Of a DNA stretch of 64,000 bases, positions 34,533-58,978 are shown piece by piece; positions within the stretch are counted from its first letter, which is position 1; each line of letters opens with the position of its first letter. The DNA comes from an uncultured Gammaproteobacteria bacterium. Lineage in GTDB: Bacteria > Patescibacteriota > Patescibacteriia > Patescibacteriales > GWE2-39-37. The translations under genes and the position numbers were made by a program. The notes under the pieces were generated by a model. That model saw nothing but the letters and a program-made list of their open reading frames with translations, was not told the DNA's origin and made no database searches. Where the stretch lies: contig CAYUCS010000003.1 in NCBI GenBank assembly GCA_964443495.1, forward strand, positions 68,031 through 132,030, given 5' to 3'.

Positions 34533-35258
34533 CTAAGCTTGTTTTTTCATTCTGAAAACCAAGAACTGCTGCAATACTGTTAATAGGGTCATGACAAGCC
34601 AATATAGAGACAGGCCTGCCGGCAAAGTTATGCCAATAAATACGGTTAACGCTGGCATCATGTACAGCATCTGCTTGTTCATCACGGCTGCGAAATCCTC
34701 ATCTTTTGCGCCTTCATCCTGGACGGTTGGCCGCTGGTTCGAAAGCATCTTGGCCTGCCAGAACTGGGCCAAGCCGGCAAGCACAGCGAGTAAATAGTTC
34801 GGGTTGGCAAGATTAATGAGTCCGAAAAATCCCTGCGGATTAATTGCCTCCGGCCTACTGACAAACCCGTAAAGGTAATCCAATATTTGCTTGTTTGTGC
34901 TGATTTCACGAAAAACCTGAAAGACCGCAAAAAAGAAAGGCAGCTGGATCAACAAGGGCAGACACGAAGAGAAGGGGTTAATCTTGTGTTCACGATAAAG
35001 CGCCATGGTGGCCTTGGCTTGCTCTTCTTTGTTGCTGGCGTGAACTTTTTTAATTTCTTCCAGTTTAGGCTGCAGTTCTTGAAGTTCTTTTTGAGCCTTG
35101 ATCGCTTGCCGAGAAAATGGCCACAAGAACAATTTAATCAAAATCGTTATGATAATTATCGCGATGGCTAAATCATGCCCAGGGATGAAGTTATAAATAA
35201 CTACCAATAAATTAAGAATCGGCTTATAACAAACCGCGATAAACAAATCATTAAACAT
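34533..35258 (-). CDS. yidC: Membrane protein insertase YidC (short form)
   Basis: KLFLWPFSRQAIKAQKELQELQPKLEEIKK...NPFSSCLPLLIQLPFFFA...LYW; 241 aa. Confidence 0.9.
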   Translation of the reverse strand: MFNDLFIAVCYKPILNLLVVIYNFIPGHDLAIAIIIITILIKLFLWPFSRQAIKAQKELQELQPKLEEIKKVHASNKEEQAKATMALYREHKINPFSSCLPLLIQLPFFFAVFQVFREISTNKQILDYLYGFVSRPEAINPQGFFGLINLANPNYLLAVLAGLAQFWQAKMLSNQRPTVQDEGAKDEDFAAVMNKQMLYMMPALTVFIGITLPAGLSLYWLVMTLLTVLQQFLVFRMKKQA

Positions 35259-36019: not shown

Positions 36020-36279
36020 AACCTTTACATTATTATAAATATCCTTAAGATAAAAAGGTCTAGGTACTTTGTATAAGTAAAAAGCCCCTGACCTTAAAAG
36101 AAGATTCTAAAAAATACTAACATCTTTAAAGCTTTTAGTCAATTGTCGACAGGGCATGCATTTATAGACATATCAACAGTTTATACACAGCCCAAGCCCT
36201 TTCTTATAGTTGAAGCCCCTGTTATACTTTCATCATCAAAGACCTCTCATTTTAAATCTTCAAAATAACCCCCTTGCTT
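36020..36279. other. rpmH-dnaA intergenic region with weak DnaA-box-like motifs (possible upstream oriC/dnaA-promoter part)
   Basis: TTATACACA (36181-36189, 1 mismatch to TTATCCACA) and TTATAGACA (36162-36170, 2 mismatches). Confidence 0.35.
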
Positions 36280-37638
36280 ATGAACAATGAACAGCTTTGG
36301 CAGGCTGCCTTAGGTGAAATCGAGCTAACACTATCCCGAGCAAACTTCACCACCTGGTTCAAAGACACCTTTATTTCCTCCTTTGAAAACAATCAAGCTG
36401 TTGTTTGTGTTCCTAACACCTTCACTAAGGCTTGGCTGGAAAAAAAGTATCATCAAGAAATCTTAAGCGCTTTAAAAAGCGTAACCAGCCAACCAATAAA
36501 GGATATTTTTTATAAGGTTGAAGCGCGTAAGACGGCCCCGGTCTCCGACATTGTAAAACGCGTACGACCAACCGATACGGAAAGGCTGCACACCGAAGTC
36601 CTGCCAATCAATCGTTTCGGGTTAAACAACCGCTACACCTTTGACAACTTCGTCGTTGGCAAGGGCAATGAACTGGCACACGCCGCTTGCCAGGCGGTAG
36701 CCTCCAATCCTGGCAATGCCTACAACCCTCTTTTTATATATGGCGGAGTCGGGCTGGGCAAAACCCACCTACTGCAAGCGATTGGACACAACCTCTCAAA
36801 AAAGACCGACAAGATCATGTATATCACCTCTGAGAAGTTTACCAACGACTACATTCAGGCGGTTAAAAGCGGTCAAGCTCGCGAGTTCAAAGAAAGATAC
36901 CGTAACGTTGATCTCCTCCTTATTGATGATATACAGTTCATGGCTGGAAAAGATGGCACGCAAGAAGAGTTTTTTCACACCTTCAATGAACTCCATCAAA
37001 ACAACAAGCAAATCGTCCTAACTTCCGACCGTCCTCCAAAATCCATTCCAGCTTTAGAAAAACGCCTGCTTTCGCGCTTTGAATGGGGCATGATTGCCGA
37101 CGTCGGACAGCTCGACGTCGAGACAAGAATGGCCATCCTTGAACGTAAATGCCGAGAAAAAAACTATTCACTTGAAAATGAAATACTATCCTATGTGGCC
37201 GCCAATGTCCAAAACAACATAAGGGAGTTGGAGGGCGCCCTCAACAGGTTGATTGCTTATCACGAATTCAACAACTACAAGCCAACCATGGAAACTGCCA
37301 AAAACATCTTGGCAAGCATCATTATCAACTATCAACAAAAATCCACCAATGCCAAGTCGGTTATCGATGCCGTGGCACGTTTTTATGATGTGGCCGTTAA
37401 AGATATCACTGGCCAGAGCCGCAAGAAGGAGTTGGTTACGCCGAGGCAAATAATCATGTTTCTTTTGCGAGAAGAGGTAAATGCCTCATTCCCAACCATC
37501 GGCCAAGAGCTGGGCGGACGGGATCACACAACAGCGATGCACGCACACAATAAAATATCTAAAGAAATACAGGAAAACGAGCGCCTAAAACAAGAGTTAG
37601 AATCCATTAAACAACTTATCTACAGTGCCAGTGTATAA
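36280..37638 (+). CDS. dnaA: Chromosomal replication initiator DnaA
   Basis: ATG at 36280 (MNNEQLWQAALGEI...). Walker A GGVGLGKTHLL, Walker B LLLIDDIQF, and a C-terminal DNA-binding domain (...GGRDHTTAMHA). Confidence 0.97.
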   Translation: MNNEQLWQAALGEIELTLSRANFTTWFKDTFISSFENNQAVVCVPNTFTKAWLEKKYHQEILSALKSVTSQPIKDIFYKVEARKTAPVSDIVKRVRPTDTERLHTEVLPINRFGLNNRYTFDNFVVGKGNELAHAACQAVASNPGNAYNPLFIYGGVGLGKTHLLQAIGHNLSKKTDKIMYITSEKFTNDYIQAVKSGQAREFKERYRNVDLLLIDDIQFMAGKDGTQEEFFHTFNELHQNNKQIVLTSDRPPKSIPALEKRLLSRFEWGMIADVGQLDVETRMAILERKCREKNYSLENEILSYVAANVQNNIRELEGALNRLIAYHEFNNYKPTMETAKNILASIIINYQQKSTNAKSVIDAVARFYDVAVKDITGQSRKKELVTPRQIIMFLLREEVNASFPTIGQELGGRDHTTAMHAHNKISKEIQENERLKQELESIKQLIYSASV

Positions 37639-37901
37639 CTTTTGTGACTCCTTTTACGGCACAAACGCTCCGTGCAAAACCTTGAAGAGATTTTGGATAA
37701 GTCGGGCCAATTCAAGGATTACCCACAAAAGCAAAAAATAACCCACACAGCCACCAAGAACCCCGCACAGGTTTGCCAAAAAATTTCACGCAAACATTAA
37801 AGCCAAAACCAGGTTTTCAACTTATCCCGCGCCTTATTATCATTATTACTGTATCTTAAATATATATTTATTAATTAATAAATAACTAGTGAAGATTGTG
37901 T
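37639..37901. other. Probable oriC core: DnaA-box cluster plus AT-rich unwinding tract between dnaA and dnaN
   Basis: TTTGGATAA (37693-37701, reverse complement TTATCCAAA), TTACCCACA (37720-37728) and TAACCCACA (37740-37748). They are followed by a ~65-bp tract of almost pure A/T (37825-37890). Confidence 0.55.
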
Positions 37902-39026
37902 ATGAAATTTTCTAGTCTGCAAGAGAACCTAAAGCAAGGGTTATTTATAGCGGGACACCTGACTGGTAAAAATCAAAACCTCCCGATTTTGAATAATGTG
38001 CTGATTGAGGCTAAGCAGGGGAACATAAAACTAGTTTCAACAAACCTGGAGATTGGCATAAGTTGTGTCGTTCGGGGTAAAGTTGATCAAGAGGGGTCCT
38101 TTACGGTTGATGCGAAGATACTGGCTGACTATATTAACTTGCTGCCTAATCAAAAGATAGATATAGGGCTCAATAATAACTCCCTTACGATTACTTGTGA
38201 TAGTTACAACACTAAGGTCAAGGGTCAGTCAGCTGAAGATTTCCCCCTGATCCCTGTTGTAGAAAGGGGGAACTTCTGCAAAGTTCCGGTTCATCAATTT
38301 CGCAAAGCCCTGAATCAGGTTGTTTTTGCGGTTTCAACAAATGAAACCAGGGTTGAGCTCACTGGAGTTTTATTCAATTTGAATAATAAAGAGCTTGTTT
38401 TAGCCGCAACTGATAGTTATAGGTTGGCTGAGAAAAAGATCGGGGTTAAGGAAAGCACCATTGAGAGCGCCAGTGTCATAGTGCCGGCAAAAACGATCCA
38501 AGAGGTTGTTAGGATTATTTCGGGAACGAAAGATGATGTGGCTGGTGAAACGGAAGACGTTGAGGTTTATATTTACGAAAACCAGATTCTGTTCGTTTAC
38601 GGCTCAACCGAAGTGGTGTCTCGACTCATTGAAGGTCAATATCCGGATTATCGACAAATAATACCTGGTCAAGCCAAAACTAAGGCGGTTATTGAGCAGC
38701 AGCAGATTATGCGTGCCGTCAAGGCTTCGTCATTATTTGCTAAAACAGGAATTAATGATATTAATTTAGACTTCCCCAAAAACAAAGGCGGACTAGTCGT
38801 GTCCTCAGCCTCGGGGCAGACTGGTGAGAATATTGTCGAGGTTCCAGGCAAGATTGAGGGTGAGGATAATTTTGTGGTGGTGAACTATCGTTATTTATTG
38901 GACGGATTAAACACGATTGGTGGTGATGAGGTGGTGTTTGAGGTTGTGGATGGCAACACGCCATGTCTTTTGCGGCCCGCCGACAGCTCTGATTATCTTT
39001 ATATAGTGATGCCAATAAAACAGTAG
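37902..39026 (+). CDS. dnaN: DNA polymerase III beta sliding clamp
   Basis: ATG at 37902 (MKFSSLQENLKQGL...). Three-domain length (374 aa), with the ATDSYRLA motif. Confidence 0.95.
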   Translation: MKFSSLQENLKQGLFIAGHLTGKNQNLPILNNVLIEAKQGNIKLVSTNLEIGISCVVRGKVDQEGSFTVDAKILADYINLLPNQKIDIGLNNNSLTITCDSYNTKVKGQSAEDFPLIPVVERGNFCKVPVHQFRKALNQVVFAVSTNETRVELTGVLFNLNNKELVLAATDSYRLAEKKIGVKESTIESASVIVPAKTIQEVVRIISGTKDDVAGETEDVEVYIYENQILFVYGSTEVVSRLIEGQYPDYRQIIPGQAKTKAVIEQQQIMRAVKASSLFAKTGINDINLDFPKNKGGLVVSSASGQTGENIVEVPGKIEGEDNFVVVNYRYLLDGLNTIGGDEVVFEVVDGNTPCLLRPADSSDYLYIVMPIKQ

Positions 39027-39036
39027 ATAAGGGTTT

Positions 39037-39067
39037 AAAAAAACCGTCCGATTGGACGGTTTTTTTT
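39037..39067. terminator. Bidirectional terminator between convergent dnaN and the PBP gene
   Basis: AAAAAAACCGTCC-gatt-GGACGGTTTTTTT. Confidence 0.8.
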
Positions 39068-41939
39068 ATTTTACATCAATTGATAGCGGAGGTGATGAAA
39101 CGGTTTTATTGTCCCAAGTTACCCCGTTGATAATTATCTTGTAATTACCCGCTTGCTTGGGGGCTAACCAGGAGTAAGTTGAGGGAGAAGTTAGGTTTGG
39201 TTGGGTAAGGCTGCTAATAATCTTTTTTTCTGATGATGAGGCGGATTGCTCGAACATTATTTTACTAATAGCGCCAAGCCCCTCGATTGAGTAGCTAAGC
39301 GATAAGGACTCTGACTTGTTTGTCTCAATGGATAAGGATGGCTGGTTCCATGAGATTATTGGGTCGATCAATGCTTCTGTTGGGAAGTTGAGGTTAATGT
39401 TTAGTTTTTTTTCAGAGCAGTTATCGATATCGTCACAAAGGCGGACTGTTAGTTCCTGGAAGCCGCTTTTCAGAAAACTGATCGACTGATCAAGATTGAA
39501 TGGGTAGGTTGAAACAGTGGCAAGCAGATTGCCGTTTATATAATATTCAGCCCTATTAACGCCTCGAGGGGCGGTTACGCTACTTAAGGAAACCAGGAGG
39601 CGCGGCTCACTGATTGTTTGACCATCTAGCGGCTGTTCCACTGTAAAGAGCGGTTGGTTTTCTGCTTTGTGAAGATTATCCTTTTCAGTTGGGGGTGTGC
39701 TGGTTGATAGTAGGTTATTTTTTCTTGCCCAGGCTTGTACGGGGCCCTCCCAGAGGGCGAACTGAGAGTCGCTCGAGGGGTTGGTGGGGGCTGGTCCGCG
39801 AGGATTATTTTTATCAACATAGTATAGGATGCAGTGGGGTTGTCCGAAGTTTTTTTCCTCGATGAAGGAGGCTGGGGTGAGTTCGGTAGCCAGCAAACCA
39901 GACGCGCGATCAATTTTAACTGTCTGTGAACTGCTTGCAACACCATCAAGAACGGCCTTGCCAGTTTTAATCGGCTCGGGTGCTGTAAAAGCTTCAGTTG
40001 GGCTGCCAGCCAGAGCTTTTTTCATGTAAGCATTCCAGATGGGCGCCGCCACGACACTGCCATCCGCTCCACGCTTCATTGAAGTGGCGTCGTTGTTTCC
40101 AACCCAGACACCAGTTACGAGCGAGGGGGTATAACCAACCGTCCAAGCATCTTTATAGTCGTTGGTGGTGCCGGTTTTTGCTGCAACCTGACGGTCGGGC
40201 AGGGTCAAGAAGTTGCGCGAGCCGAAAACATAAGCACGGGCGTTGTTGTCCGATAAGATGCTGGTGATTTGCCGCGCGACTTGCGGATCAAAAGCTTTTG
40301 TCTTTTGTTCTTTATATTCTTCAAGCACCTTGCCACCGCGATCCTCAACCCGAAGGACCGGGGAAATTGCGTGGACGTCGCCATCTTGGGCGAAGGCGCT
40401 ATAAGCATTAACATGTTCAAGCAGCTGCACTTCTCCGCCGCCTAAAACCAAGGACAAACCGAAACGATCCTTGTCGTTCAGAGTGGAATACCCTAGCTTT
40501 TTAGCGACATCCATTACCGTGTTTACGCCAGCGAGGTACATTGCCTTGACGGCAGGAATATTCAAAGAACCAGCCAAGGCCTTCCGGATGGTTACTGGGC
40601 CATGCTCAGCTCCGTCGTAGTTGTGCGGTTCGTACTTTTTGCCAGGGTCGGTTGAAAAGTTGGTAACAAGGTCGTAAAGAATCGTGTCGGGAGTGTAACC
40701 CTTGGTGAATGCGGTGGCGTACACGATCGGCTTGAAAGAGGAACCTGGTTGTCGCGGACTGGTGGCAATATTCACCTGGCCGTCTATCTTGTCGCTAAAG
40801 TAGTCCTTAGAGCCCACCATGGCCAGAATTTGACCAGTTTTGGGGTCTATGGAAACTAGGGCTGCGTTGCTTGCTTGGTATTTTTCGTTTTTTTCCGCAC
40901 GTTCAGCGATTGCTTCCTCGGCAGCTTTTTGTTTTTCTATATCGATTGTGGAAATTATTTTCAAACCGCCCTGTTCGACAGTTTTTTCTCCGTATTTTTC
41001 CGACAAAACATCCTTGAGGTACATTACGAAGTGAGGAGCGATAATGTTCTCTTTCGGCTTAGTGAAGACAAGTTCGGTTTTTTTTGCCGCCTCTGCTTCA
41101 TCTTTGGAGATGTAGCCCTGTTCAGCCATCACATCTAAAACGTATTTTTGACGGCTAATTAACAGCTCTCGATTCGGTCCATAGGGCGAATAGCGGCTTG
41201 GCGCCTGAGGTAGTGCGGCTAGAATCGCTGCCTCCGCCAAGCTTACGTCTTGTATCCTTTTGCCAAAATATCTCTGGCTTGCCGACTCAACGCCATAAGC
41301 TGTCGATCCGTAAGGGATTTCATTTAAGTACATTTGGAGAATTTCGTCTTTTGAGAAACGTTTTTCCATTTGGTAAGCCAAAATCAGCTCCTTGATTTTT
41401 CTTACATAGCTTTTTTCATTAGTAAGGATGGCGTTCTTAACTAATTGTTGGGTGAGGGTTGAGCCGCCGGCCTTTTGATTCCGTAAAATATTGGTAATGG
41501 CTGTCCTGAAAATAGCCCACAAGCTGAACCCGCCGTGCTTGTAAAAGTTTTTATCTTCAATGGCGACGGTTGCATTGCGTACGTTTTGAGGAATGTCATT
41601 AAGTCCGACCAAGGTGCGTTTTTGGTCGCCATATATTTCATATAAGACTGTTTGGCCAGCACGGTCGTATATGCGCGTGCTTTGGGCGACCTGCCGTTCA
41701 ATCAGCTTGTTTGGGTCAGGGAGTCCTTGTGATAAATAAATGAAGCCGCCAACCATTAAGATGGTCATAACAACAATTGCGATAAGTGCACCCTTTTTTG
41801 TAATATAACGTAAAAATGAAAACTTAGCCGAAAGCTTCTTCTTTTTGGTTTCAGTGTTTTGAGGACGAATTGGCGAGTAAACCTGCCCGGGAGAGTCAGT
41901 GTTTTTCTTGTGTATAAACTGTGGAATAGGCATATGCAA
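39066..41939 (-). CDS. Class A penicillin-binding protein (glycosyltransferase GT51 plus transpeptidase) with a ~250-aa C-terminal beta-rich extension
   Basis: GT51 motifs EDKNFYKHGGF and GGSTLTQQLVKN. Transpeptidase motifs SSFKP, SLN and KTGTT. N-terminal TM anchor. Confidence 0.9.
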   Translation of the reverse strand: MHMPIPQFIHKKNTDSPGQVYSPIRPQNTETKKKKLSAKFSFLRYITKKGALIAIVVMTILMVGGFIYLSQGLPDPNKLIERQVAQSTRIYDRAGQTVLYEIYGDQKRTLVGLNDIPQNVRNATVAIEDKNFYKHGGFSLWAIFRTAITNILRNQKAGGSTLTQQLVKNAILTNEKSYVRKIKELILAYQMEKRFSKDEILQMYLNEIPYGSTAYGVESASQRYFGKRIQDVSLAEAAILAALPQAPSRYSPYGPNRELLISRQKYVLDVMAEQGYISKDEAEAAKKTELVFTKPKENIIAPHFVMYLKDVLSEKYGEKTVEQGGLKIISTIDIEKQKAAEEAIAERAEKNEKYQASNAALVSIDPKTGQILAMVGSKDYFSDKIDGQVNIATSPRQPGSSFKPIVYATAFTKGYTPDTILYDLVTNFSTDPGKKYEPHNYDGAEHGPVTIRKALAGSLNIPAVKAMYLAGVNTVMDVAKKLGYSTLNDKDRFGLSLVLGGGEVQLLEHVNAYSAFAQDGDVHAISPVLRVEDRGGKVLEEYKEQKTKAFDPQVARQITSILSDNNARAYVFGSRNFLTLPDRQVAAKTGTTNDYKDAWTVGYTPSLVTGVWVGNNDATSMKRGADGSVVAAPIWNAYMKKALAGSPTEAFTAPEPIKTGKAVLDGVASSSQTVKIDRASGLLATELTPASFIEEKNFGQPHCILYYVDKNNPRGPAPTNPSSDSQFALWEGPVQAWARKNNLLSTSTPPTEKDNLHKAENQPLFTVEQPLDGQTISEPRLLVSLSSVTAPRGVNRAEYYINGNLLATVSTYPFNLDQSISFLKSGFQELTVRLCDDIDNCSEKKLNINLNFPTEALIDPIISWNQPSLSIETNKSESLSLSYSIEGLGAISKIMFEQSASSSEKKIISSLTQPNLTSPSTYSWLAPKQAGNYKIIINGVTWDNKTVSSPPLSIDVK

Positions 41940-43001: not shown

Positions 43002-43052
43002 GAAGTTTTGGTTTGATTTTAATACTAACAGTATAGCAAAACATCGGACAAC

Positions 43053-43082
43053 AAAAAAACAGCAAAGAGTCTGCTGTTTTTT
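43053..43082 (-). terminator. Intrinsic terminator ending the copper operon
   Basis: Minus strand: AAAAAACAGCA-gactctt-TGCTGTTTTTTT, 28 nt after the copA stop. Confidence 0.7.
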
Positions 43083-43109
43083 GCGACTTTTAACCAGGAG
43101 TACGTTTGG

Positions 43110-46100
43110 TTATCGTGAGGGGGTCTTTAGAGCGAAGTCTTGACCGATGAAATGCATCGTGTCGAGTGCCGTCTTGGTTTCGGGCAGGATGCTAGCAATA
43201 ATGACATCGTTGCCAAAGAAATCCTCTATCGTGTCACCCGGCTTGTTGATAAGCTTAGCCTCGATCATCATCTTGGCCTCAGCGCTGCCGACGTATACGG
43301 GCAGATATTTCCTGTCACCCAATGCCACTTCGTCAAAACCCTTGATCGAAGCCTTTAGCCTCTCTGGAGTGTTGGTCGCATTAACGAAGTAGAAGTTCTT
43401 GGTGACATCTTTTTCGGCCACAAACTTGATCTCGGCCGTGTTGGTTATGTATGACAAGGTTTTGCCATTGACGAAGTGATATTCGTCGATCAAGGTGCCG
43501 GTCGGTTCAAGGATGCCGACGACCTTGATGCTGGAAAGGCCGAAGAAGTCTTTGAGCGAATCGCCCGGTCCTTGGATCAGTTTTTCCTCCTTCATCATCA
43601 TTGCCTCTTTGTAGCCGACAACCATTTCGTAATCGCTCAAAGCCAAGGTGCCAGCTTCAGCTTTCAGGCTGCCTGGCAGGCTTTCGGCACCCAGGAATAG
43701 CTTGGGGTTGCCTTCGGCAAAATTGATCTTAGTTTCGCCGTTGGCCAGAAAGGTATTTAGAGTAGTGGCCATTTCAACGGAAACGGTTTTTTTCATCCCC
43801 TGGTCTTCCATACCGGAACTGAATTTAGCGAACTCGAAAAAGCCGAGGGTGAAGACGATAATCATGATCAACGGCGCGACTAGTGATGCATAGTTGCGTT
43901 TAGCGGGCCGGAAATAGCGCAAAAGCAAAGAGTTGGACACGACCGAGATTGAGCTAAGGGCCATGGCGAGTCCGGCCAACTCGGGCTTAAGGATCAGGCC
44001 GAAACCGGCGAAGACTCGAGCAGCGATCGGAATCCCGATGACATTGTAGAAGAGGGCAAAGAACATGTTCTGCTTGATCTTGCCCATGGTTTCGCGGGCT
44101 AGCTCGAGTGAGGTGACGACATCGTTCAGGTCGTTCTTCATGATGACGATACCGCCGGTTTCCATGGCTACGTCGGTGCCGGAGCCCATTGCGATGCCCA
44201 AGTTAGCTTGTGCCAGGGCGGGCGCATCATTGATGCCGTCGCCGACCATGGCGACGCGCCTCCCAGTGTCCTGTAGTTTTTTGACCTCATTCGCCTTATC
44301 TTCTGGCAAAACCTCTGCCAAGACATTGGTGATACCTACTTCGCGAGCGATAGCTTGAGCGGTGCGCTGATTATCGCCGGTAATCATATAGACTTCGATG
44401 CCCATGGCCTTGAGCCGGTTGATAGCGGCAGTGGTGGTCGGCTTGACCGTGTCAGCCACGGCAATGGCGCCGAGGACTGTTTCTTTGGTAGCCAGAAGCA
44501 TGGCAGTCTTTCCTTGCTCTTCCAGTTTGGCCAGTTTGCGGTTGATCTTGTCGATCGGGTGGCCTAAGGTTTCGCTTACTAGTTTGCGGTTGCCGAAGTA
44601 GTAAACAGTGCTGTTGATGGTGCCTTGGACGCCGTGTCCAGGGATGGCAGAGAAGTCGTGGACTTCATCGAGGCCGAAGTCTTCGTCCTGAGCGTGGGTG
44701 TAGATCGCCTCGGCCAAGGGGTGTTCGGATAATTTTTCCAAGCTGGCAGCAACTGTAATTACCTCGTCTTCGTCAAGGCTGCCAAATGAAAGAATGTCGG
44801 TCACTTCCGGCTTGCCCTTGGTCAAAGTGCCGGTCTTGTCGAAGATGACGGTATTTATTTTGCAGGCTGCTTCCAGCGGTTCACCACCCTTGATCAAAAT
44901 GCCATATTCGGCGCCTTTGCCAGTGCCGACCATTAATGAAGTCGGAGTGGCTAAGCCGAGAGCGCAAGGGCAAGCGATAACGATGACGGCGGTGAAGGCC
45001 ATCAAGGCGAAGGTTAGGGTTGAGCCGAGCAGGAAATACCAGACCGCGAAGGTGATAATGGCGATGCTGATGACGGCTGGGACGAACCAAGCAGAAATGC
45101 GGTCGGCCATATTTTGGATCGGAGCTTTCGAGCCTTGGGCGTCTTCGATCAGGCGTATAATCTGGGCTAAAGCGGTTTCTGAGCCGATGCGGGTGGCTTC
45201 GAACTCGAAGCTGCCGACCTTGTTGACAGTGCCGCCGATAACTGAGTCGCCGACATGTTTTTCAATCGGCAGGCTTTCACCGGTAATCATAGACTCGTCG
45301 ATGGCAGAGCCGCCCTTAGTGATAGTGCCGTCAACCGGCACCTTTTCGCCTGGGCGCACTATGATGATGTCGCCATGCATCACCTCTTCGACCGGAATAT
45401 CCAGTGTCTGGCCGTTGCGGATGACGCGTGCAGTCTTAGCTGACAGGTCCATCAGCTTCTTGATAGCGTCTGAGGTTTTGCCTTTGGTGCGGATCTCCAG
45501 CCACTTGCCCAGGATGACAAAGGTGATTAGGAAGGCGGCAGTCTCGAAATAGAGGTCGGGTATTTTGCCGTTAAGTCCGATCAGTGAGCGGTTGTTAAAG
45601 TAATAAATCGCATAATTGACCAAACTATAGATAAAGGCGGTCGAGGTGCCGATGGCGATCAAGCTGTCCATGTTAAAGGTCTTCATCTTGAGCGAGGACC
45701 ACATGCCCTTATAAAAGCCGGCACCGATGACCAGCTGGATTGGCAAGGTGAACAGCAATGAGATGATGCCGATGTATGGTGATAGGGCGATCTTGCCAGG
45801 CAACCACGCGAAGAAATCAAGGAACATGAAATACAGCATGGGCAAGCTTAGGACGAAACTGATCCAGAACTTGTTTTTGTAAGAAGAGATTTCCTTTTCA
45901 CGCTTCTTGCTTTCGTATTCGCTGTCTTTGGCATCGACTTCTTCGGCCTTGTAGCCGGCTTTTTCGACGGCCATGATCAGTGTTTGCAGGTCGGCGGAAG
46001 CTTCGTCGAAGACGACGGAAGCCTTTTCGGCCGCGAAGTTGACATTAGCCTGCTTGACGCCAGGCACCTTCTTGAGTGAGCGCTCGATCAAGCCGGCGCA

Positions 46101-46739
46101 GGACGAACAGTGCATGCCGTAAAGCGAGAGGTTGGCGCGCTTGGCATGGTCGGCGCCAGCAATCGGATTGGCATTTAAGAGCGGAGCTGAGGCCTCATTC
46201 ATTTTCGCCGCTGCCACGGTGGGGGTGGGTGCCGCGGTTTTGTGGCTGCCTAGTAAAGAATCGAATAAGCCGGCCAGATTGGCAGTGTTGCTCAGTTGGT
46301 CGACGAATTCCTTGGCTTCGGCCTGGCCTTCTGGCACGCTGAATTCGGCCAGCTTGTCGTTATGGATCTTGCCTTCGAAATATGGCCGGCCGTTATTGTC
46401 GGAAAGCACGCGCCCTTCGGCTTCAATCTTGGCCTCAAGCTTGATTTTTAATGGTTGATCGTCGCCAGCCCGTTGTTTTTTGACCGCAATCTGGCTGGCG
46501 GCCAGCTTGGCTGGGGCGGCCGGATTAGCAATGGTCGCCTTGTAGCCGGCTCGTTCGATGGCAGCTAGGATATCATCGGGGGACGCTTGGGCAGGGTCCA
46601 GTTGCACCGTGGCGCGGCCAGTCTGGTGGTCGATGCTGATGTTAGTGACTCCTGCCAACTCCTCCAGCTCAGCGGCAATGATCTTTTCGCAGGATGCGCA
46701 GTGCATGCCCGAAATAAATAGTTCTATCTGTTGTTTCAT
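43110..46739 (-). CDS. copA: Copper-translocating P1B-type ATPase with two N-terminal HMA domains, an extra C-terminal TM helix and a ~235-aa C-terminal repeat domain
   Basis: HMA motifs GMHCASC and GMHCSSC, TM6 CPC ([12 protein letters not shown]), [13 protein letters not shown] and TGES. The core ends about aa 950 ([12 protein letters not shown]). A further 259 aa follow in the same frame. Confidence 0.9.
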
Positions 46740-46744
46740 AGGGG

Positions 46745-46948
46745 TTAGTTAATTGAGTAATCGGTTCCCTTGAGCGCGTCTTTGACCTCTTCGAGACTGA
46801 CTTTCCGCTCGGCCGTAATGGTGGTGCGGCCGGTTGCCGAATCGACGAGGATATTGCTGACGCCCGGGATTTTGGAAAGTTTCATGGTGCAAAGCTTAGC
46901 ACAAGCACTACAAGTGAGTCCTTGTATCGAAAATGTTTGCGTATTCAT
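46745..46948 (-). CDS. copZ: Copper chaperone CopZ (single HMA domain)
   Basis: [19 protein letters not shown]...; 67 aa. Confidence 0.85.
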
Positions 46949-46956
46949 ATGAAGAG

Positions 46957-48768
46957 TTAATTAACAGTGATGTGGCCTCGGACCATGCCCATGCCGCAGG
47001 TGATCTGGTAAGTGCCAGGCTCGGTCGGGGTGAATTGCATGGTGATTTTCTTACCCGCTTCCAATAATTGCGGCTCTTCGGCCAGGTCGGATACCTTAAT
47101 GTAGCTCATGCAACCGCCGCCATCCTCTTGAGCATCGATTTCGAAGCGGACTGGCTTGCCGGCCTTGACCGTGAATTCGCTCGGCTGGATGTCAGCGGCC
47201 TGGGTATAGACAGCTTTAATCACCTGTTCATTAGTTGTTGAGTCTTTTGTGGTTACGGCAGGCTTGGTGTTAGTCGGGGCAGTTTTTTTGCCTCCGCCGC
47301 AACCGCAACCGCCGGCAGAACCGCACGAGGCGCCGCCATCGATTGCCGCCGGAGCGGTATTGTCTGCCGGCTCGTCAGCCGCTGTTCCGCCACCCCCCGA
47401 AGAATCGACCACATTGAAGCTTCCGGTATACATGCCCATGGAGCAGGAGAATTTCAAGGTGCCTGGTTCCTTGGGCGTGAATTCTATTATATTCATGCCT
47501 GCTTTCAAGGATTTGCTGATGTTGAGTTGGCGAACGACCAAAGCGCTAGCGCAGGAATAAGGAGCCTTGGCATCGATTTCCCAGCGGACCGGAACTCCCG
47601 CCTTGATAGTGAAGCGGTTGGGTTCGTAGCCGCGGTTTGTTTCCGACATACTGACCACCTGTACCCCATTTTCCATTTTGACATTAGGGTCCTGCGCTGT
47701 GACAGTCTTGGCTTCAGTGGTATTGAATTCAGGAGTCCAACCCAGAAGGGTTAAGCCGTTTTTCAAGTTAAACAGCGAGAGCAGGACCACGACCGTGCCG
47801 GCAAACCTGAAGAATCTTTTGGCCGACTCGCCCTTAAAGATGGAGGTAAGACCGCCGACGCTCAAAAGGCCGGGCGCCGTTCCCAATGCGAACAAGCCCA
47901 TAATCACGGCACCATCAAAAGCGCTACCGCTCGAAACGGCGTAGAGCTGCATGGCCTGAGTGAAACCGCAAGGAAGAAAAAAGGTAGAAGCTCCTAGAAT
48001 CATCGAGTTCTTGTGGCTATACTCCTTGTTTTTGGAGCCGATGCCCAAAGTTTTGGCCACTCCCTTAGGCAGAGCCAGCTTGAAGGTGTTAAGCCTCGGC
48101 ATCAGTTCAGTGAGCTGCAAGCCCATGAGCAACATGACAAGTCCGACTAATACGGTAAGAAGAGCGCTGAGGGAAGGCGAAAGCTGGAAGGCTGAGCCGA
48201 TCATGCCAAGCAAGGCTCCGAAAAAGGCGTAGCCCAGTATGCGGCCGCCATTGAAGTATAGGTGAGGACGAAATTTCTGCTTGGGAGTAGCCTCTGGATG
48301 GGCTTCAGCGAACTTGGCCGACATGCCCAAAGTCAGGCCGCCAACCAAGGCCATGCAGGTCGAAAATCCGGCGACTAGGCCGATAAGCATGACCACCCCG
48401 ATGCTCGAAGGGTTGTTGGCCGCGCCAACGTTCATGTCGGTCAGGCCGAAAAATCCGAGGATGCCGTAGATGAAGAAAACTATAAGCAATGAATTGAAGA
48501 TTGCCTTGTAGTCGCCGGGATTCTTGCTGAACCAGGGCATTTTTTTCGTTTCGCCGATGGTATAGCCCGCTTCGACAACGGCTTTTTCAAGATTGTGAAT
48601 GCGAGGCGAAGATTCGGCTGCGAAAAAGACGTCAGCCTGGCCCTTTTTGTAGTTTACCTCGACTTTTTTGACGTGCTCGACCGAAGAGAGTTTTTCCTCA
48701 AGCAGCATTTCGCACGAGCGGCAATGCATGCCGCTGATCGGCAGGGAGATTTTATGTAATTCGTTCAT
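46957..48768 (-). CDS. HMA domain - DsbD_2/TauE-like polytopic membrane domain - two cupredoxin-like domains
   Basis: ATG at 48768 (MNELHKISLPISGMHCRSCE...). The membrane core has GFSTCMALVGG and FFLPCGFTQ. A Gly/Cys-rich linker (CGSAGGCGCGGG) separates two C-terminal beta-sandwich repeats, ending ...LKFSCSMGMYTGSFNVV and ...YQITCGMGMVRGHITV. Confidence 0.8.
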   Translation of the reverse strand: MNELHKISLPISGMHCRSCEMLLEEKLSSVEHVKKVEVNYKKGQADVFFAAESSPRIHNLEKAVVEAGYTIGETKKMPWFSKNPGDYKAIFNSLLIVFFIYGILGFFGLTDMNVGAANNPSSIGVVMLIGLVAGFSTCMALVGGLTLGMSAKFAEAHPEATPKQKFRPHLYFNGGRILGYAFFGALLGMIGSAFQLSPSLSALLTVLVGLVMLLMGLQLTELMPRLNTFKLALPKGVAKTLGIGSKNKEYSHKNSMILGASTFFLPCGFTQAMQLYAVSSGSAFDGAVIMGLFALGTAPGLLSVGGLTSIFKGESAKRFFRFAGTVVVLLSLFNLKNGLTLLGWTPEFNTTEAKTVTAQDPNVKMENGVQVVSMSETNRGYEPNRFTIKAGVPVRWEIDAKAPYSCASALVVRQLNISKSLKAGMNIIEFTPKEPGTLKFSCSMGMYTGSFNVVDSSGGGGTAADEPADNTAPAAIDGGASCGSAGGCGCGGGKKTAPTNTKPAVTTKDSTTNEQVIKAVYTQAADIQPSEFTVKAGKPVRFEIDAQEDGGGCMSYIKVSDLAEEPQLLEAGKKITMQFTPTEPGTYQITCGMGMVRGHITVN

Positions 48769-48831
48769 AGTTAAGTCAGTTAAATAAAATAAACTTGCAG
48801 GCATGGGGCTGCCTGTTTAACTGAGCCAACT

Positions 48832-49224
48832 TTAGATCCGTAGCACGATGGTATCGAGAGCAATCTGGCTAGGAGGTGCCTGAAAGCTTTTTGGCTTCGG
48901 CAAACCATGGCTAATGGGCAATGATTCGCCGAGACGTGATGATGGTATTAGAAAAGATTTGTTGAATTCGTAAATCGCCAGCAGCGGTGCAGCGGTGCTG
49001 CCTTTCTTGTCGGCACAACATGGCAGGATATCTTTTTGCGCGCCGTCTTCCTTCTTTTCCCCGCCGGCTTTTTCGTGAGCATGGCAAGCGCCATAGCTTT
49101 CCGCAGCCGACAAAGAGGGGGCGGCGTTCATAAGAAACGCGTGAAAAAAATTCGCCATCATCAAGCCGATGATTACGGAAATCATCCCGACATGACGCAA
49201 GTTTTTTATTATTCCCCCAGTCAT
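48832..49224 (-). CDS. Hypothetical Cys/His-rich bitopic membrane protein of the copper operon
   Basis: Its ATG directly abuts the csoR stop (TGAATG). It has one TM (VGMISVIIGLMMANFFHAFLM) and then CHAHEKAGG and LPCCADKK motifs. I recognise no family. Confidence 0.6.
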   Translation of the reverse strand: MTGGIIKNLRHVGMISVIIGLMMANFFHAFLMNAAPSLSAAESYGACHAHEKAGGEKKEDGAQKDILPCCADKKGSTAAPLLAIYEFNKSFLIPSSRLGESLPISHGLPKPKSFQAPPSQIALDTIVLRI

Positions 49225-49494
49225 TCAGTTGAATTTTTTATAAACTTCAAGAAGCTCCGCGACGGTTTGCTGCTCACGGTCCTCCTTGATGGCATTGACC
49301 ACGCAAGTCTTCAAGTGGTTTGATAGCAGAACCTCCTCAGCCTTTTTAATAGCCCCGCGGACGGCCGATGCCTGCTGTATGATGTCGAGGCAGTAGGCAT
49401 CCTGCTCGATCATCTCGATGATCTTGTTAAGATGTCCGGCGGTTATCTTCAGTCGCCTGGTGGCGTCTTTTTTGGCGCAAGAAATGGGGCTCAT
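49225..49494 (-). CDS. csoR: CsoR/RcnR family metal-sensing transcriptional repressor
   Basis: ATG at 49494 (MSPISCAKKDATRRLKITAGHLNKIIEMIEQDAYCLDIIQQ...HLKTCV). The Cys-His-Cys ligand pattern matches Cu(I)-sensing CsoR. The operator lies just upstream of this start. Confidence 0.85.
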   Translation of the reverse strand: MSPISCAKKDATRRLKITAGHLNKIIEMIEQDAYCLDIIQQASAVRGAIKKAEEVLLSNHLKTCVVNAIKEDREQQTVAELLEVYKKFN

Positions 49495-49506
49495 AAATAT
49501 TCTTAT

Positions 49507-49525
49507 TACCCCCCTGGGGAGGGTA
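49507..49525 (-). promoter_or_regulatory. CsoR-type operator (GC-rich pseudo-palindrome TACCC-N9-GGGTA)
   Basis: TACCCCCCTGGGGAGGGTA lies between the -10 element and the csoR ATG. CsoR operators in other bacteria are TACCC...GGGTA-type G/C-tract inverted repeats. Confidence 0.55.
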
Positions 49526-49530
49526 CTGTT

Positions 49531-49559
49531 AATATATCCGGTGCAGGAGAATAAGTCAA
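49531..49559 (-). promoter_or_regulatory. Candidate promoter of the csoR-copA operon
   Basis: Minus strand: TTGACT (49559-49554), 17 nt, TATATT (49536-49531). Confidence 0.5.
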
Positions 49560-49613
49560 GCGAGCGGGAATGTAGGCGGTGCATATGAGCGGGAAATTAT
49601 TTTTTGGCCATAT

Positions 49614-54105: not shown

Positions 54106-55530
54106 TTAGAGGAACAAGGAATAAATGGTAGCAATCCCTGCAAAAACCATCAAAGCGACGACAGCCCAGCCGAAAATCTTGTTAAGGGTTCCGTTCGCAT
54201 GCTTGCCCATGATTTTCTTATCGCTGCTGATGACGACTATCGGAATTAAGACCATTGGCGCCACCAAGCCATTGGCGACAGCAGAATAGATCAGTGCCTT
54301 GATGGGGTCAAGGTTGATAAAGTTCAGCGCTAGGCCGACAAAAACTGAAATGATAATTACGCCGTAAAATGCTTGGGCTCGATCTAGCTTGTTGTAAAGA
54401 CCTTCGCGCCAACGGAAGCTTTCAGAGAGCGCGTAAGCGACTGATCCGGCAAGCACCGGTATGGCAAGCAGGCCGGTGCCGATAATGCCAAGGGTAAAAA
54501 GCAGATAGGCATTTTCTCCTGCCAACGGCTTGAGGGCGGCGGCGGCATCGGCAGCCGTGTTGATGTTTGTGATGCCGCTGGCAAACAGGGTTGCCGAGCA
54601 GGTGGCAATAATGAAAAACATGACAAGGTTTGACAGGAGCATGCCGGACCAAACATCCAGTCTCATTTCTCTAACCTCTTGGTCCGTGGCGCCGACTCGG
54701 TCCTTAATGCGGGTTTTGCCTTTAAGGATTTCTTCTTCAACCTCTTGGGATGTCTGCCAAAAAAACAGATAGGGGGAAATGGTTGTTCCTAAAACGCCGG
54801 TAATTAAAATGATTGATTCTTTGTCCCAGGAAAAAGTCGGCACAAAGGTCGATTTCAAAACAGCCGCCCAGTCGATATCGACAAGCATGGCGGTGAACAC
54901 GTACGACAACAGGATCAGTGCCAGCCATTTCAAGTATCGGGCGTATTTTTGGTAAGTGGTAAAAATTTGCAATCCGAGCGTCAGTCCTGCGAAAGCGAAA
55001 ACTAGCAGGCCGAAATCGAGATCAGGAAAAAGCAGCTGGGTGGTCTTGGCCATTGCCCCTAGGTCGGCGCCGATATTGAAGGTGTTGGCCGCGAACAAAA
55101 GCGTTGTTGCAGTATAAAGCACCCAGGGAGGCAGGAATTTTTTGATATTCGAAGCCAACCCGCGGCCGGTAACCAGCCCGATGCGTGCGCACATCTCTTG
55201 GGCGACGGCCATCAATGGGAAGGTGAAAGTCGCCAGCCATAACCACTGGAAGCCGTAGCGTGCGCCGGCTTGCGAGTAGGTGGCGACGCCCGAGGGGTCG
55301 TCATCTGCAGCCCCTGTAGTCAAACCTGGGCCGAGCAGGTGCCAGTATTCCGCCGCTTTCTTTACGGTCTTCTGATTGGCAAAAAGCGATGCTATTTTTT
55401 TTGATTCGTCGATGGTTTTCTCCAATATTATGGCCGGCTCTTCCGCGATCGTTTCAGCCAATGAATGGCGGCGCGTCGGCAACTTTTTCTTTTTAGTTTG
55501 CGCCTTTCTATTGGTTTTTGCTTTTTCCAT
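54106..55530 (-). CDS. mntH: NRAMP family divalent metal (Mn/Fe) transporter with a ~60-aa basic N-terminal extension
   Basis: GPGLTTGAADDDPSGVATYSQAGARYGF motif and 11-12 TM segments. Confidence 0.85.
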   Translation of the reverse strand: MEKAKTNRKAQTKKKKLPTRRHSLAETIAEEPAIILEKTIDESKKIASLFANQKTVKKAAEYWHLLGPGLTTGAADDDPSGVATYSQAGARYGFQWLWLATFTFPLMAVAQEMCARIGLVTGRGLASNIKKFLPPWVLYTATTLLFAANTFNIGADLGAMAKTTQLLFPDLDFGLLVFAFAGLTLGLQIFTTYQKYARYLKWLALILLSYVFTAMLVDIDWAAVLKSTFVPTFSWDKESIILITGVLGTTISPYLFFWQTSQEVEEEILKGKTRIKDRVGATDQEVREMRLDVWSGMLLSNLVMFFIIATCSATLFASGITNINTAADAAAALKPLAGENAYLLFTLGIIGTGLLAIPVLAGSVAYALSESFRWREGLYNKLDRAQAFYGVIIISVFVGLALNFINLDPIKALIYSAVANGLVAPMVLIPIVVISSDKKIMGKHANGTLNKIFGWAVVALMVFAGIATIYSLFL

Positions 55531-57234: not shown

Positions 57235-58977
57235 ATGAAAGAAATTATCCGAAAAAATTACAAAAAATTTATTTTCGCCGGCCTGGCCCTTGTGGCCGTC
57301 ATTGCTATTAGCAGGTACTTTTACGCAAGGCCAGGCGAAAAAAACGCTCAGAAGAAAGATGTAAAAACGGTTGGCGTGGCTGAACTCAAATCAGTTTCAT
57401 CACAGGACGAGCTGGCAGTCCAGGGAGTCGTTAAAGCTGATAGCAAGGTTGACGTGGTGGCGATGGCTAACGGCACGGTCAAGCGATTTGATTTGAAAAT
57501 AGGCGGCAAGGTGCTTGCCAACCAGCCTGTCGCCGAGCTTTACGATAATGTTTTGTTGACAAACCTGATGAACGCGGGGGTTAATGCCAGCAACGTAAGC
57601 CAGAACTATCTGAACGCCAGCAAGGTCGCTGACGAGTCGGTCAATCAGGCAAAGCTCGGACTTTCCAGGGCGGAGGAGGGGGTTGTGGCAGCAGAAATCG
57701 GCGTAAAATCCGCTAAAGACGCCCAGGCGAATAGCCGTAGCTTGATTGAGAAGAACCGCCTCGATATCAGGGGCAACGCCGCCATAGCCTGCTCTAACTT
57801 TTTAAACACGATCGAAAGTTATCTGGATCAGGCAAATTACCTCATTAAGGCAGAAGGCAATGAACAATTGCCAGGTGTCAGCTTGACGCTCTCTGCCGAA
57901 GACGGCCAAAGCCTTGTCGATGCCAAGACGTATTATCTTGCCGCGAAAAGACGATATGACTCGTTATCAAGGAAAAACATAGCCCCTGATGAGTCAATGA
58001 ATGCAATCAATGAAATTCTGAAGAACCTTGATGAGACTAAAAAGCTGGCCGATAAGGTTGTCGATGTCCTTGAGGCGACGGTGCCGCATTCCCAGTTCAC
58101 CGAGTCAGCTCTTTCTGCGCAGAAAGCCAGTTTTGCCGGTTTGCGCAGCACGATTATCAATACCCAGACCGCTGCGCAGGGTACGATGCAAAGCCTGCAG
58201 AATTTCGAATTGACCAGCAAACAGCAGCTTGATGGAGCAAGCAATGCAGTAAAAGCGGCTGAAAGCCAGCTTGCGCAAGCTAAACTGGCTTTAGACTCAT
58301 CACGATCTGGCGCTGCGGGAGCTGAGAAGAGCCGTCAGCAACAGCTGGATTTGGCCCGCACCTCCTTGGACGGAGCTCAGGGGCAATATCGGTTACTAAG
58401 CGAACAGGCGGACGACCTGACAGTCAAGGCGCCGATCGCTGGTGAAGTTACGGCTAAGCTGGTCGAGATAGGCACCGAAGTCAGGATCGGGCAGAAGATC
58501 GCCGAAATTTCCAAAGTCGATTCTGTTAAAATCATTGCCAGTCTGGGTCCCGAAGACGCTTTAAGGATCAAGCTTGGCCAGAGCGTCACTGTAAATGGCA
58601 GATTCAAAGGGGTGGTCAACCAGGTGAACCCTGCGGCCGACCCTTCGAGCAAAAAGATCCAGGTAGAGGTGGTTTATGATAATAAAAACAAAGACTTCAT
58701 ACCCGAAACTTTGGTTGACCTGTCTTTGCCGCTTAAGCCCGTCGGGCCATCGGGTAGCGGAGTCTATCGGTTGCCTTTGAAGGTTTTGACGATAGGGCAG
58801 AATGAAAATTTTATATTTATCGCCGAAAATGGAAGGGCGAAGAAAATCAACATAACGCTTGATCGAATTGACGGAGAGTCCGCGTATGTGCGCACGGATT
58901 TGCCAGGAGACACAAAAGTCATCATTGATGGCAATAAGATGCTTGAGGACGGCGAGGAGATAACCATTGAGAGATAA
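57235..58977 (+). CDS. Efflux membrane-fusion (HlyD/RND adaptor) protein with an unusually long alpha-helical region (580 aa)
   Basis: N-terminal TM anchor and a beta-barrel/lipoyl-like start (GVVKADSKVDVVAMANGTVKRF). About 280 aa of Ala/Gln/Ser/Leu-rich helical sequence follow. The end reads LTVKAPIAGEVT... Confidence 0.8.
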   Translation: MKEIIRKNYKKFIFAGLALVAVIAISRYFYARPGEKNAQKKDVKTVGVAELKSVSSQDELAVQGVVKADSKVDVVAMANGTVKRFDLKIGGKVLANQPVAELYDNVLLTNLMNAGVNASNVSQNYLNASKVADESVNQAKLGLSRAEEGVVAAEIGVKSAKDAQANSRSLIEKNRLDIRGNAAIACSNFLNTIESYLDQANYLIKAEGNEQLPGVSLTLSAEDGQSLVDAKTYYLAAKRRYDSLSRKNIAPDESMNAINEILKNLDETKKLADKVVDVLEATVPHSQFTESALSAQKASFAGLRSTIINTQTAAQGTMQSLQNFELTSKQQLDGASNAVKAAESQLAQAKLALDSSRSGAAGAEKSRQQQLDLARTSLDGAQGQYRLLSEQADDLTVKAPIAGEVTAKLVEIGTEVRIGQKIAEISKVDSVKIIASLGPEDALRIKLGQSVTVNGRFKGVVNQVNPAADPSSKKIQVEVVYDNKNKDFIPETLVDLSLPLKPVGPSGSGVYRLPLKVLTIGQNENFIFIAENGRAKKINITLDRIDGESAYVRTDLPGDTKVIIDGNKMLEDGEEITIER

Positions 58978-58978
58978 T

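Follow-up and report, generated by a model that had tools for sequence, protein, structure and literature searches.

A CopA-type Cu(I) pump of Patescibacteria with a ninth transmembrane helix and a duplicated C-terminal domain predicted to face outward

Can a copper pump carry in one polypeptide an additional transmembrane helix and an outer domain, and what would such a domain do? The question is raised by a gene in a 64,000-nucleotide stretch of DNA from an uncultured bacterium (contig CAYUCS010000003.1 of assembly GCA_964443495.1, forward-strand positions 68,031 to 132,030), referred to here as the window. Both termini of CopA pumps are located in the cytoplasm. The pump contains eight transmembrane helices (PMC7558416). 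The single open reading frame at 43110-46739 on the minus strand encodes a protein of 1209 amino acids (aa), a Cu(I)-type P1B ATPase with a C-terminal extension, the parts of which are as follows.

43110-46739, minus strand: whole gene encoding the CopA-type Cu(I) P1B ATPase, with the stop codon at 43110-43112 (TIGR01511, TIGR01525)
46527-46733, minus strand: heavy-metal-associated (HMA) domain 1 (aa 3-71), N-terminal and cytoplasmic, with HMA-type matches from Pfam and NCBIfam in two stretches
45942-46133, minus strand: HMA domain 2 (aa 203-266), cytoplasmic, with the best PF00403 stretch at aa 208-264
43902-45869, minus strand: P1B-1 pump core (aa 291-946), comprising helices MA, MB and M1-M6 and the A, P and N domains
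43821-43889, minus strand: predicted ninth transmembrane helix (aa 951-973), from hydropathy, the AlphaFold helix and positive-inside bias
43779-43820, minus strand: short juxtamembrane linker (aa 974-987), predicted local distance difference test (pLDDT) about 62-79, with the often-conserved Met M977
43449-43778, minus strand: module 1 of the predicted outer domain (aa 988-1097), from repeat alignment, conservation and an AlphaFold pLDDT above 95
43470-43622, minus strand: core motif of module 1 (aa 1040-1090)
43113-43448, minus strand: module 2 of the predicted outer domain (aa 1098-1209), from repeat alignment, conservation, its own model and fold matches
43146-43298, minus strand: core motif of module 2 (aa 1148-1198)

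In its core the window pump is a P1B-1 CopA. Like the canonical pumps of A. fulgidus, L. pneumophila and E. coli, it has a pair of N-terminal HMA domains, every catalytic and Cu(I)-ligand motif, and scores over the cut-offs of family hidden Markov models. Pfam revealed the two HMA domains, E1-E2_ATPase (PF00122) and HAD hydrolase (PF00702). The scores were 634.3 bits against a cut-off of 397 for TIGR01511 (copper-translocating P-type ATPase) and 666.6 bits against a cut-off of 346 for TIGR01525; that for the E. coli CopA equivalog NF007952 was under the cut-off (725 against 1316). The catalytic motifs of P-type ATPases are present at TGE 486, DKTGT 634 and GDGIND 833, and the transmembrane Cu(I) ligands at CPC 590, YN 898 and MALSS 926. 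The combination of CPC in M4, YN in M5 and MxxSS in M6 is the P1B-1 Cu(I) signature of the Arguello classification. Whereas canonical CopA has eight helices and a cytoplasmic end, the window pump adds an extra hydrophobic helix (aa 951-973) and a folded domain of 236 aa predicted to be outside, and its topology is a variant. Apart from the ninth helix and the outer domain, the pump is a typical representative of an established family. The CopA and P1B models of Pfam and NCBIfam stop at aa 940-946 and the frame runs on for 259 aa (43113-43889), a tail with no family match in Pfam or NCBIfam. Neither database has a model for the tail family, which is annotated by NCBI as hypothetical. The initial annotation had described a CopA core continuing in frame for 259 aa past its normal end, and the sequences and positions which it quoted were correct.

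The tail beyond the helix is an internal duplication of a module of ∼110 aa, in agreement with the tandem repeat first noticed by eye. The two halves are 37% identical over 100 aa (BLASTP E 9e-15) and aligned with a Smith-Waterman score of 127 compared to 27.5±4.8 for 1000 shuffles (z = 20.6). The AlphaFold2 model of the tail, built on an alignment of 95 sequences, was confident, with a pLDDT of 94.3 and a predicted template modelling (pTM) score of 0.84; the values for module 2 modelled alone were 92.2 and 0.85. The order of elements in the modelled module is beta-hairpin, strand, helix, strand, strand, short helix and strand.

Could the extension be an artefact of this assembly, in which a lost stop codon, a frameshift or a chimera joined copA to an unrelated downstream gene? 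Frameshift-broken copies of the gene in the draft assemblies L001, L007, L072 and L085, which explain some of the short database entries, would favor such an origin, as would the split forms found in archaea. The survey of related genomes envisaged in the initial annotation gave a different answer. A search of ∼5.8 billion proteins with the tail returned 35 relatives, all uncultured; the CopA C-terminus, the helix and two modules are in one chain in P0008, P0009, P0018 and P0030, and P0138 and P0125, two longer relatives, gave no Pfam match. When 1.84 billion cluster representatives were searched exhaustively with HMMER, 172 clusters were obtained that include full-length fusions of 954-1125 aa and also many proteins of ∼250-280 aa which begin with their own hydrophobic helix. 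A 20-sequence alignment then served as the query in a scan of one genome per GTDB species, and the 80 loci obtained were read by six-frame stop-to-stop translation and searched with the window's own proteins. The CopA core and tail are in one open reading frame in 69 of these loci (two modules in 58, one module in 11), the tail is free-standing in nine and a contig end cuts two.

The record titles of the fused loci are nearly all of Patescibacteria lineages or unclassified bacteria. They include Falkowbacteria, Paceibacteria, Gracilibacteria, Peribacteria, Berkelbacteria, Levybacteria, Woesebacteria, Shapirobacteria, Collierbacteria, Doudnabacteria and Gottesmanbacteria, among others, and some third-party bins with the fused locus bear the title Gammaproteobacteria or similar. 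The same in-frame junction, with the motif LLL[RK]xF[KR]P[NG]KRN[YW][IL]S followed by the helix, is kept across the 69 species-level genomes, which come from many independent studies and include the complete chromosome CP066698. The exact 1209-aa protein is present on a 203,788-bp NCBI contig and two fused proteins at least 90% identical to it were found in independent Logan assemblies, giving near-identical fusions in three independent assemblies. The tail also has a conserved fold of its own. Since the fusion is conserved in frame in 69 of 80 loci, a lost stop codon or a chimera is excluded, and the comparative data as a whole rule out an artefact, the remaining probability of which is very small.

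The nine free-standing tails are encoded in Methanoculleus palmolei DSM 4273, Methanosphaerula subterraneus, a Methanoregulaceae metagenome-assembled genome (MAG), three Woesearchaeota, an unclassified archaeon, a Micrarchaeia MAG and an Acidobacteriota MAG. In M. palmolei the tail protein is WOX55638.1 and the pump is encoded on CP137641. The free-standing protein is ∼260 aa in length, with a short basic N-terminus, the helix and two modules in a type-II layout. At all nine loci it is adjoined on the same strand by a copA of normal length, the stop codon of which follows directly after the M6 helix. Five more cases, on metagenome contigs outside the locus scan, also adjoin a pump gene located either upstream or downstream, so that a same-strand P1B ATPase gene is adjacent to 14 of the 14 free-standing homologues with enough flanking sequence. 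These homologues are single-pass proteins that bear an ectodomain and are tied by their gene position to one pump. An arrangement in which the core ends at a stop codon and another gene follows downstream, which the initial annotation had set against a fusion, does occur in archaea; it is read here as the split form of the same pair, a reading that strengthens the functional link and with which the fusion stands. Since the same helix and two modules are encoded beside copA as a separate protein, the tail unit is a dedicated partner of this pump lineage, and the fused and split pair argues that the CopA core and tail work together. A complex of the two is proposed from the gene fusion (the Rosetta-stone argument) and the adjacency. 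The architecture and the partnership with CopA are regarded as highly probable.

The pumps with fused or adjacent tails appear to constitute one lineage of Cu(I) pumps. CPC and YN were found in all 64 fused and nine adjacent pumps analysed and MxxSS in 71 of the 73 (62 of 64 fused, nine of nine adjacent), while five ordinary CopA paralogues from the same Patescibacteria loci are without the CPC, YN and MxxSS pattern. In a neighbor-joining tree of the pump cores, midpoint-rooted and drawn without support values, the fused pumps formed one clade that is sister to the pumps with adjacent partners, and the ordinary paralogues were placed outside. The topology of this tree suggests a single origin of the fusion. 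A second P1B ATPase of normal length (about 748-775 aa) is encoded 1-4 kb downstream of the fused pump at L015, L025, L038, L040, L046 and L075; these second ATPases are without the CPC-A-L-G pattern and are outside the fused and adjacent clades.

Two kinds of variant were found among the tails. The 11 fused pumps with one module (L051, L054, L059, L062, L070-L073, L075, L085 and L087) have tails of 158-180 aa in which module 1 is kept in most and module 2 in L087; these natural single-module variants indicate that the module is an autonomous unit. L085 encodes its second module in a short open reading frame apart from the first, possibly as the result of a frameshift. In a Woesearchaeota MAG (JAYVHA010000011.1, L077:5851-7650) the free-standing helix and two modules are extended by ∼350 aa matching a YncE-like or cytochrome-D1-like beta-propeller (PF21783, E 9e-14), which yields a 600-aa protein, presumably outer, encoded directly after copA.

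On which side of the membrane is the tail located? An extra hydrophobic helix after the core, as claimed at the outset, was confirmed by a mean Kyte-Doolittle hydropathy of 2.31 for aa 949-975, level with that of the pump's own helices, and by a 25-residue helix in the AlphaFold model at tail residues 4-28. The mean hydrophobicity of the extra helix was 2.19 for the 69 fused proteins. A basic stretch directly precedes the helix of the window pump, and the average number of lysine plus arginine residues per 12 aa in the 69 fused proteins was 3.9 before the helix compared to 1.2 after it, a positive-inside bias indicating that the helix runs from inside to outside. Combined with the eight-helix topology of CopA, the bias supports the outside location predicted in the initial annotation, and the predicted topology makes it very likely that the tail domain is at the outer face. 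Positions occupied by T/S, Y/F and F in the helix are conserved in both the fused and free-standing forms, and Met is often found at the membrane surface after the helix (tail M27, equivalent to M977, in 47 of 81 sequences).

The initial annotation had likened the repeats to outer domains of the MacB/FtsX type. Foldseek compared the models with the 350,542 chains of the PDB. The top matches to the whole tail were only MacB-superfamily outer domains (YbbP, MacB from three species, LolE and LolC) with probabilities of 0.84-1.00, E values of 5e-3 to 0.17 and template modelling (TM) scores of 0.26-0.33. The top twelve matches to the single module were almost all LolC, LolE, MacB, HrtB and YtrF, with query TM scores (TMq) of 0.41-0.52 and E values of 0.08-0.8. 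No match to either tail or module reached an E value of 1e-3 or better in the PDB. Such a uniform MacB-type top of the list is unlikely to have arisen by chance. The MacB_PCD model PF12704 gave no match to the window tail even at E ≤10. It matched 14 of 95 relatives (best E 7e-6), with 11-21 bits for those individually scanned compared to the gathering cut-off of 27 bits, and both modules map to the same block of the model at about positions 119-198 of 207. The M. palmolei homologue is labeled MacB-like in UniRef and hypothetical by NCBI.

Profile comparisons gave a similar picture. The hhalign probability was below 1% against the outer domains of E. coli and A. baumannii MacB, the sequences of which were verified against PDB chains beforehand, 42% against one Parcubacteria MacB-type permease, and 16% for module 2 and 1% for module 1 against a 116-sequence profile of the Parcubacteria permease family, the register being always the same. 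A profile search of the 5.8-billion-protein set returned family members only, with no bridge to FtsX or MacB permeases, and the family profile matched among PDB sequences only the CopA overhang and, at E 7.7, YtrF. FtsX outer domains proper were not returned by any search made. The FtsX permease domain PF02687 was not found in the window protein or its relatives, in which the tail has one helix, no second flanking helix and no ATP-binding cassette (ABC) partner, the partner being a P-type ATPase. At least one genome encodes genuine MacB-type outer domains beside a member of the tail family, that of Parcubacteria GW2011_GWC2_38_7, in which a MacAB-like set comprising a membrane-fusion protein, an ABC ATPase and two permeases with MacB_PCD and FtsX domains (L088:1-4479) is directly upstream of the copper cluster.

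The outer domains of MacB, LolC/LolE, YbbP, HrtB and YtrF are the best and near-exclusive fold matches of the tail and module, with which they share a sequence block of strand, helix, G-D strand, hairpin, V-x-G-[IV] strand and D-x-x-hydrophobic. The differences are also clear. MacB-type (type VII ABC) proteins combine a four-helix FtsX permease with an ABC ATPase and have two flanking helices, whereas the tail has neither of these partners and one helix; the MacB-type outer domain is a pair of Porter and Sabre subdomains, whereas the tail is a tandem duplication of one module. The helix of the module is lengthened by E-A-x-M-M, an insertion specific to the tail family, in which His also stands where the MacB-type sequences have a hydrophobic residue. 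The MacB part of the proposed resemblance gained some backing from the order of the fold matches and the sub-threshold PF12704 hits, but all scores are under significance (E ≥5e-3, TM 0.26-0.52, hhalign ≤42%), and the FtsX part found no match. The tail itself is not a member of the MacB_PCD family, and the link to MacB is a lead. Most probably the module descends remotely from the helix-hairpin portion of a MacB-type outer domain, the Sabre subdomain.

The two modules share the pattern G-x-x-E-A-x-M-M-x-x-E-x-L-[FI]-x-x-x-G-D-x-[IL]-x-x-F-F-G ... V-x-G-I-L-x-x-T-x-T-x-x-D-x-x-H-F. Numbered along the tail, M99 and M208, T130 and T238, and D135 and D243 are at least 90% conserved; H138 is present in 85 of 94 sequences and H246 in 85 of 95, and in the conservation alignment E95 is found in 85 sequences and E204 in 91. 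The candidate ligand positions are retained in the one-module variants; numbered along the whole protein, they include M1048, M1049, D1085 and H1088 in module 1 and M1157, M1158, D1193 and H1196 in module 2. Glu and Met-Met open the helix, and the loop and strand coming after the long strand bear the Thr-x-Thr, Asp and His. From this strand-helix order only, we infer that these residues line one pocket in each module.

What, then, could be the role of the tail? The proposal tentatively preferred here, as a distinct possibility somewhat short of probable, is that the tail is a pump-tethered domain for the capture and hand-off of Cu(I). The ninth helix would cross the membrane from inside to outside after M6 and hold the two ∼110-aa alpha/beta modules on the outer face beside the copper release site, the exit funnel lying near E398 in the YFE motif, where M2 ends on the outer side. 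The Glu, Met-Met, Thr-x-Thr, Asp and His pocket of each module would take Cu(I) leaving the pump, keep it off the membrane, and pass it to the cluster-encoded cupredoxin-like outer domains or to the medium. In cells that lack a periplasm, the tail would thereby take the part played by CusF with E. coli CopA. E. coli CopA docks with periplasmic CusF and hands over Cu(I) directly rather than as the free ion, and CusF's Cu(I) site is made up of one His and two Met (PMC7558416). The likeness lies in a P1B-1 pump handing its ion to a dedicated exit-side protein and, for the predicted binding by the tail, in the same types of ligand in each module. CusF is however a small soluble beta-barrel of the periplasm that docks transiently, whereas the tail is membrane-anchored or fused, has an unrelated alpha/beta fold and belongs to cells thought to lack a periplasm. 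In support are the CusF types of ligand occurring twice, the tether at the exit, the restriction to Cu(I)-type pumps and the cluster with CsoR, CopZ-like and cupredoxin-like proteins. Several observations weigh against copper capture. One Met of the pair is matched in alignment by a structural Leu of MacB-type domains and may be mere core packing; the tail contains no Cys; a few divergent members (P0085) are without the Met-Met and His positions; and the conserved residues could instead form an interface with the pump. Neither model had a known copper chaperone fold (CusF, CopC/PcoC, PCuAC or cupredoxin-like CupA) in its top 50 Foldseek matches in the PDB, and the tail had no Pfam or NCBIfam match to known extracytoplasmic copper chaperone families.

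The same architecture can be explained with no copper bound to the tail, as an accessory part that stabilises the pump, aids its membrane insertion, or gates or caps the exit in the E1-E2 cycle. It would resemble the beta subunit of the Na,K- and H,K-ATPases, KdpC and Cdc50, as a subunit encoded on its own in archaea and joined to the pump in Patescibacteria. MacB-type outer domains are known as mechanical parts rather than ligand carriers, which fits this explanation, as does the free-standing form, a single-pass protein with an N-terminal helix and large ectodomain encoded beside one P-type pump; the T/S, Y/F and F positions conserved in the helix of both forms suggest helix-helix packing. 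Outside-facing accessory subunits are moreover known for P1A, P2C and P4 ATPases (PMC10654040). Pfam and Foldseek PDB matches nevertheless relate the tail to no known beta subunit in sequence or fold, and, unlike such subunits, it forms one chain with the pump throughout a bacterial lineage. Such a part would not account for Met-Met, His, Asp and Glu being conserved above all other side chains of each module or for the strict restriction of the tail to Cu(I)-type pumps, and it is regarded as less likely than copper capture. More improbable still is a docking platform, in which the modules recruit to the pump exit a separate copper-binding acceptor such as the cupredoxin-like domains of the cluster. 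The best fold matches are indeed partner-binding outer domains (LolC, LolE, MacB and YbbP), and LolC recruits LolA through its Sabre subdomain. Most loci encode cupredoxin-like domains in the vicinity, and the Woesearchaeota homologue with the YncE-like beta-propeller suggests that the unit tolerates added outer parts. The cupredoxin neighbors are however not universal, the small downstream reading frame being found in nine of 80 loci and some loci having none of any kind; the fold similarity is weak, and the proposal is made by analogy.

The capture proposal bears on a step of copper export for which, to our knowledge, the Cu(I) exit and its acceptor are known in detail only for E. coli CopA with CusF; we know of no exit-side acceptor for single-membrane bacteria and archaea. 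The tail family is a concrete candidate for this missing step, spread over many Patescibacteria classes and several archaeal orders within one lineage of Cu(I) pumps, and the fused and split forms provide a natural pair for experiments. If the proposal is true, an exit-side hand-off of copper without a periplasm could be tested, including in the cultured M. palmolei DSM 4273. The results also suggest that a P-type pump took over part of the outer domain of an ABC transporter, and such a transfer from one transporter superfamily to another would be unusual. Only the P1A, P2C and P4 pumps are listed with outside-facing subunits in a 2023 review, P1B pumps being described as without them (PMC10654040). 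In the literature searched, from which subscription journals were outside the coverage, no description was found of a CopA with a ninth helix and outer domain, in agreement with the statement in the initial annotation that no characterised CopA of this kind was known. A broader and more doubtful proposal is that the tail represents the first family of outside-facing accessory subunits of P1B pumps, derived from a type VII ABC outer domain and receiving the ion at the exit of Cu(I) pumps, separate in methanogens and DPANN archaea and fused once in the ancestor of the Patescibacteria CopA clade.

The copper cluster of the window comprises, in addition to the pump, the following genes.

46745-46948, minus strand: CopZ-like HMA protein of 67 aa, directly upstream of the pump (PF00403, E 1e-9), in the same position in most related loci
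46957-48804, minus strand: 615-aa membrane protein with an HMA domain, a DsbD_2 transmembrane region and two C-terminal cupredoxin-like domains
48832-49224, minus strand: open reading frame of 130 aa between the repressor gene and the HMA-DsbD-cupredoxin gene
49225-49584, minus strand: CsoR-type metal-sensing repressor at the head of the cluster (PF02583, E 5e-23), recurring in related loci

Of 82 related loci, 57 have an upstream open reading frame containing DsbD, which in 56 cases matches the cupredoxin part as well. Nine of 80 loci have a small cupredoxin-like reading frame directly downstream. The two cupredoxin-like domains of the 615-aa protein are connected by a Gly/Cys-rich linker, GGASCGSAGGCGCGGG. 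The 130-aa product had no Pfam match and contains one hydrophobic helix and a Cys/His stretch (CHAHE, PCCADKK), features of the sequence by which it may be another small copper-handling membrane protein. Just past the stop codon of the pump gene, at 43050-43109 on the minus strand, AAAAAACAGCAGACTCTTTGCTGTTTTTTT can by eye fold as a hairpin followed by a T-run; a terminator scan after the stop codon called none, perhaps since the A and T runs pair together.

Further genes of the window were noted in passing. A class A penicillin-binding protein with transglycosylase and transpeptidase domains is encoded at 39066-41939 (minus strand) and has a C-terminal extension of ∼300 aa with a Big_7 Ig-like domain and a BatD-like match. 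An Nramp transporter is encoded at 54106-55530. The stretch 57235-62395 encodes a CusB/HlyD-like membrane-fusion protein (580 aa) followed by an AcrB-family resistance-nodulation-division pump (1142 aa) that has a weak HMA-like match; an outer-membrane factor was not seen with this set, which is odd for a lineage thought to be single-membraned. The genes yidC (34533-35258, minus strand), dnaA (36274-37638, plus strand) and dnaN (37896-39026, plus strand) are grouped in the window, the GC skew changes sign near 38 kb, and its cumulative minimum is at 36-38 kb. The yidC-dnaA-dnaN region probably contains the chromosomal replication origin, about 5 kb from the copper cluster.

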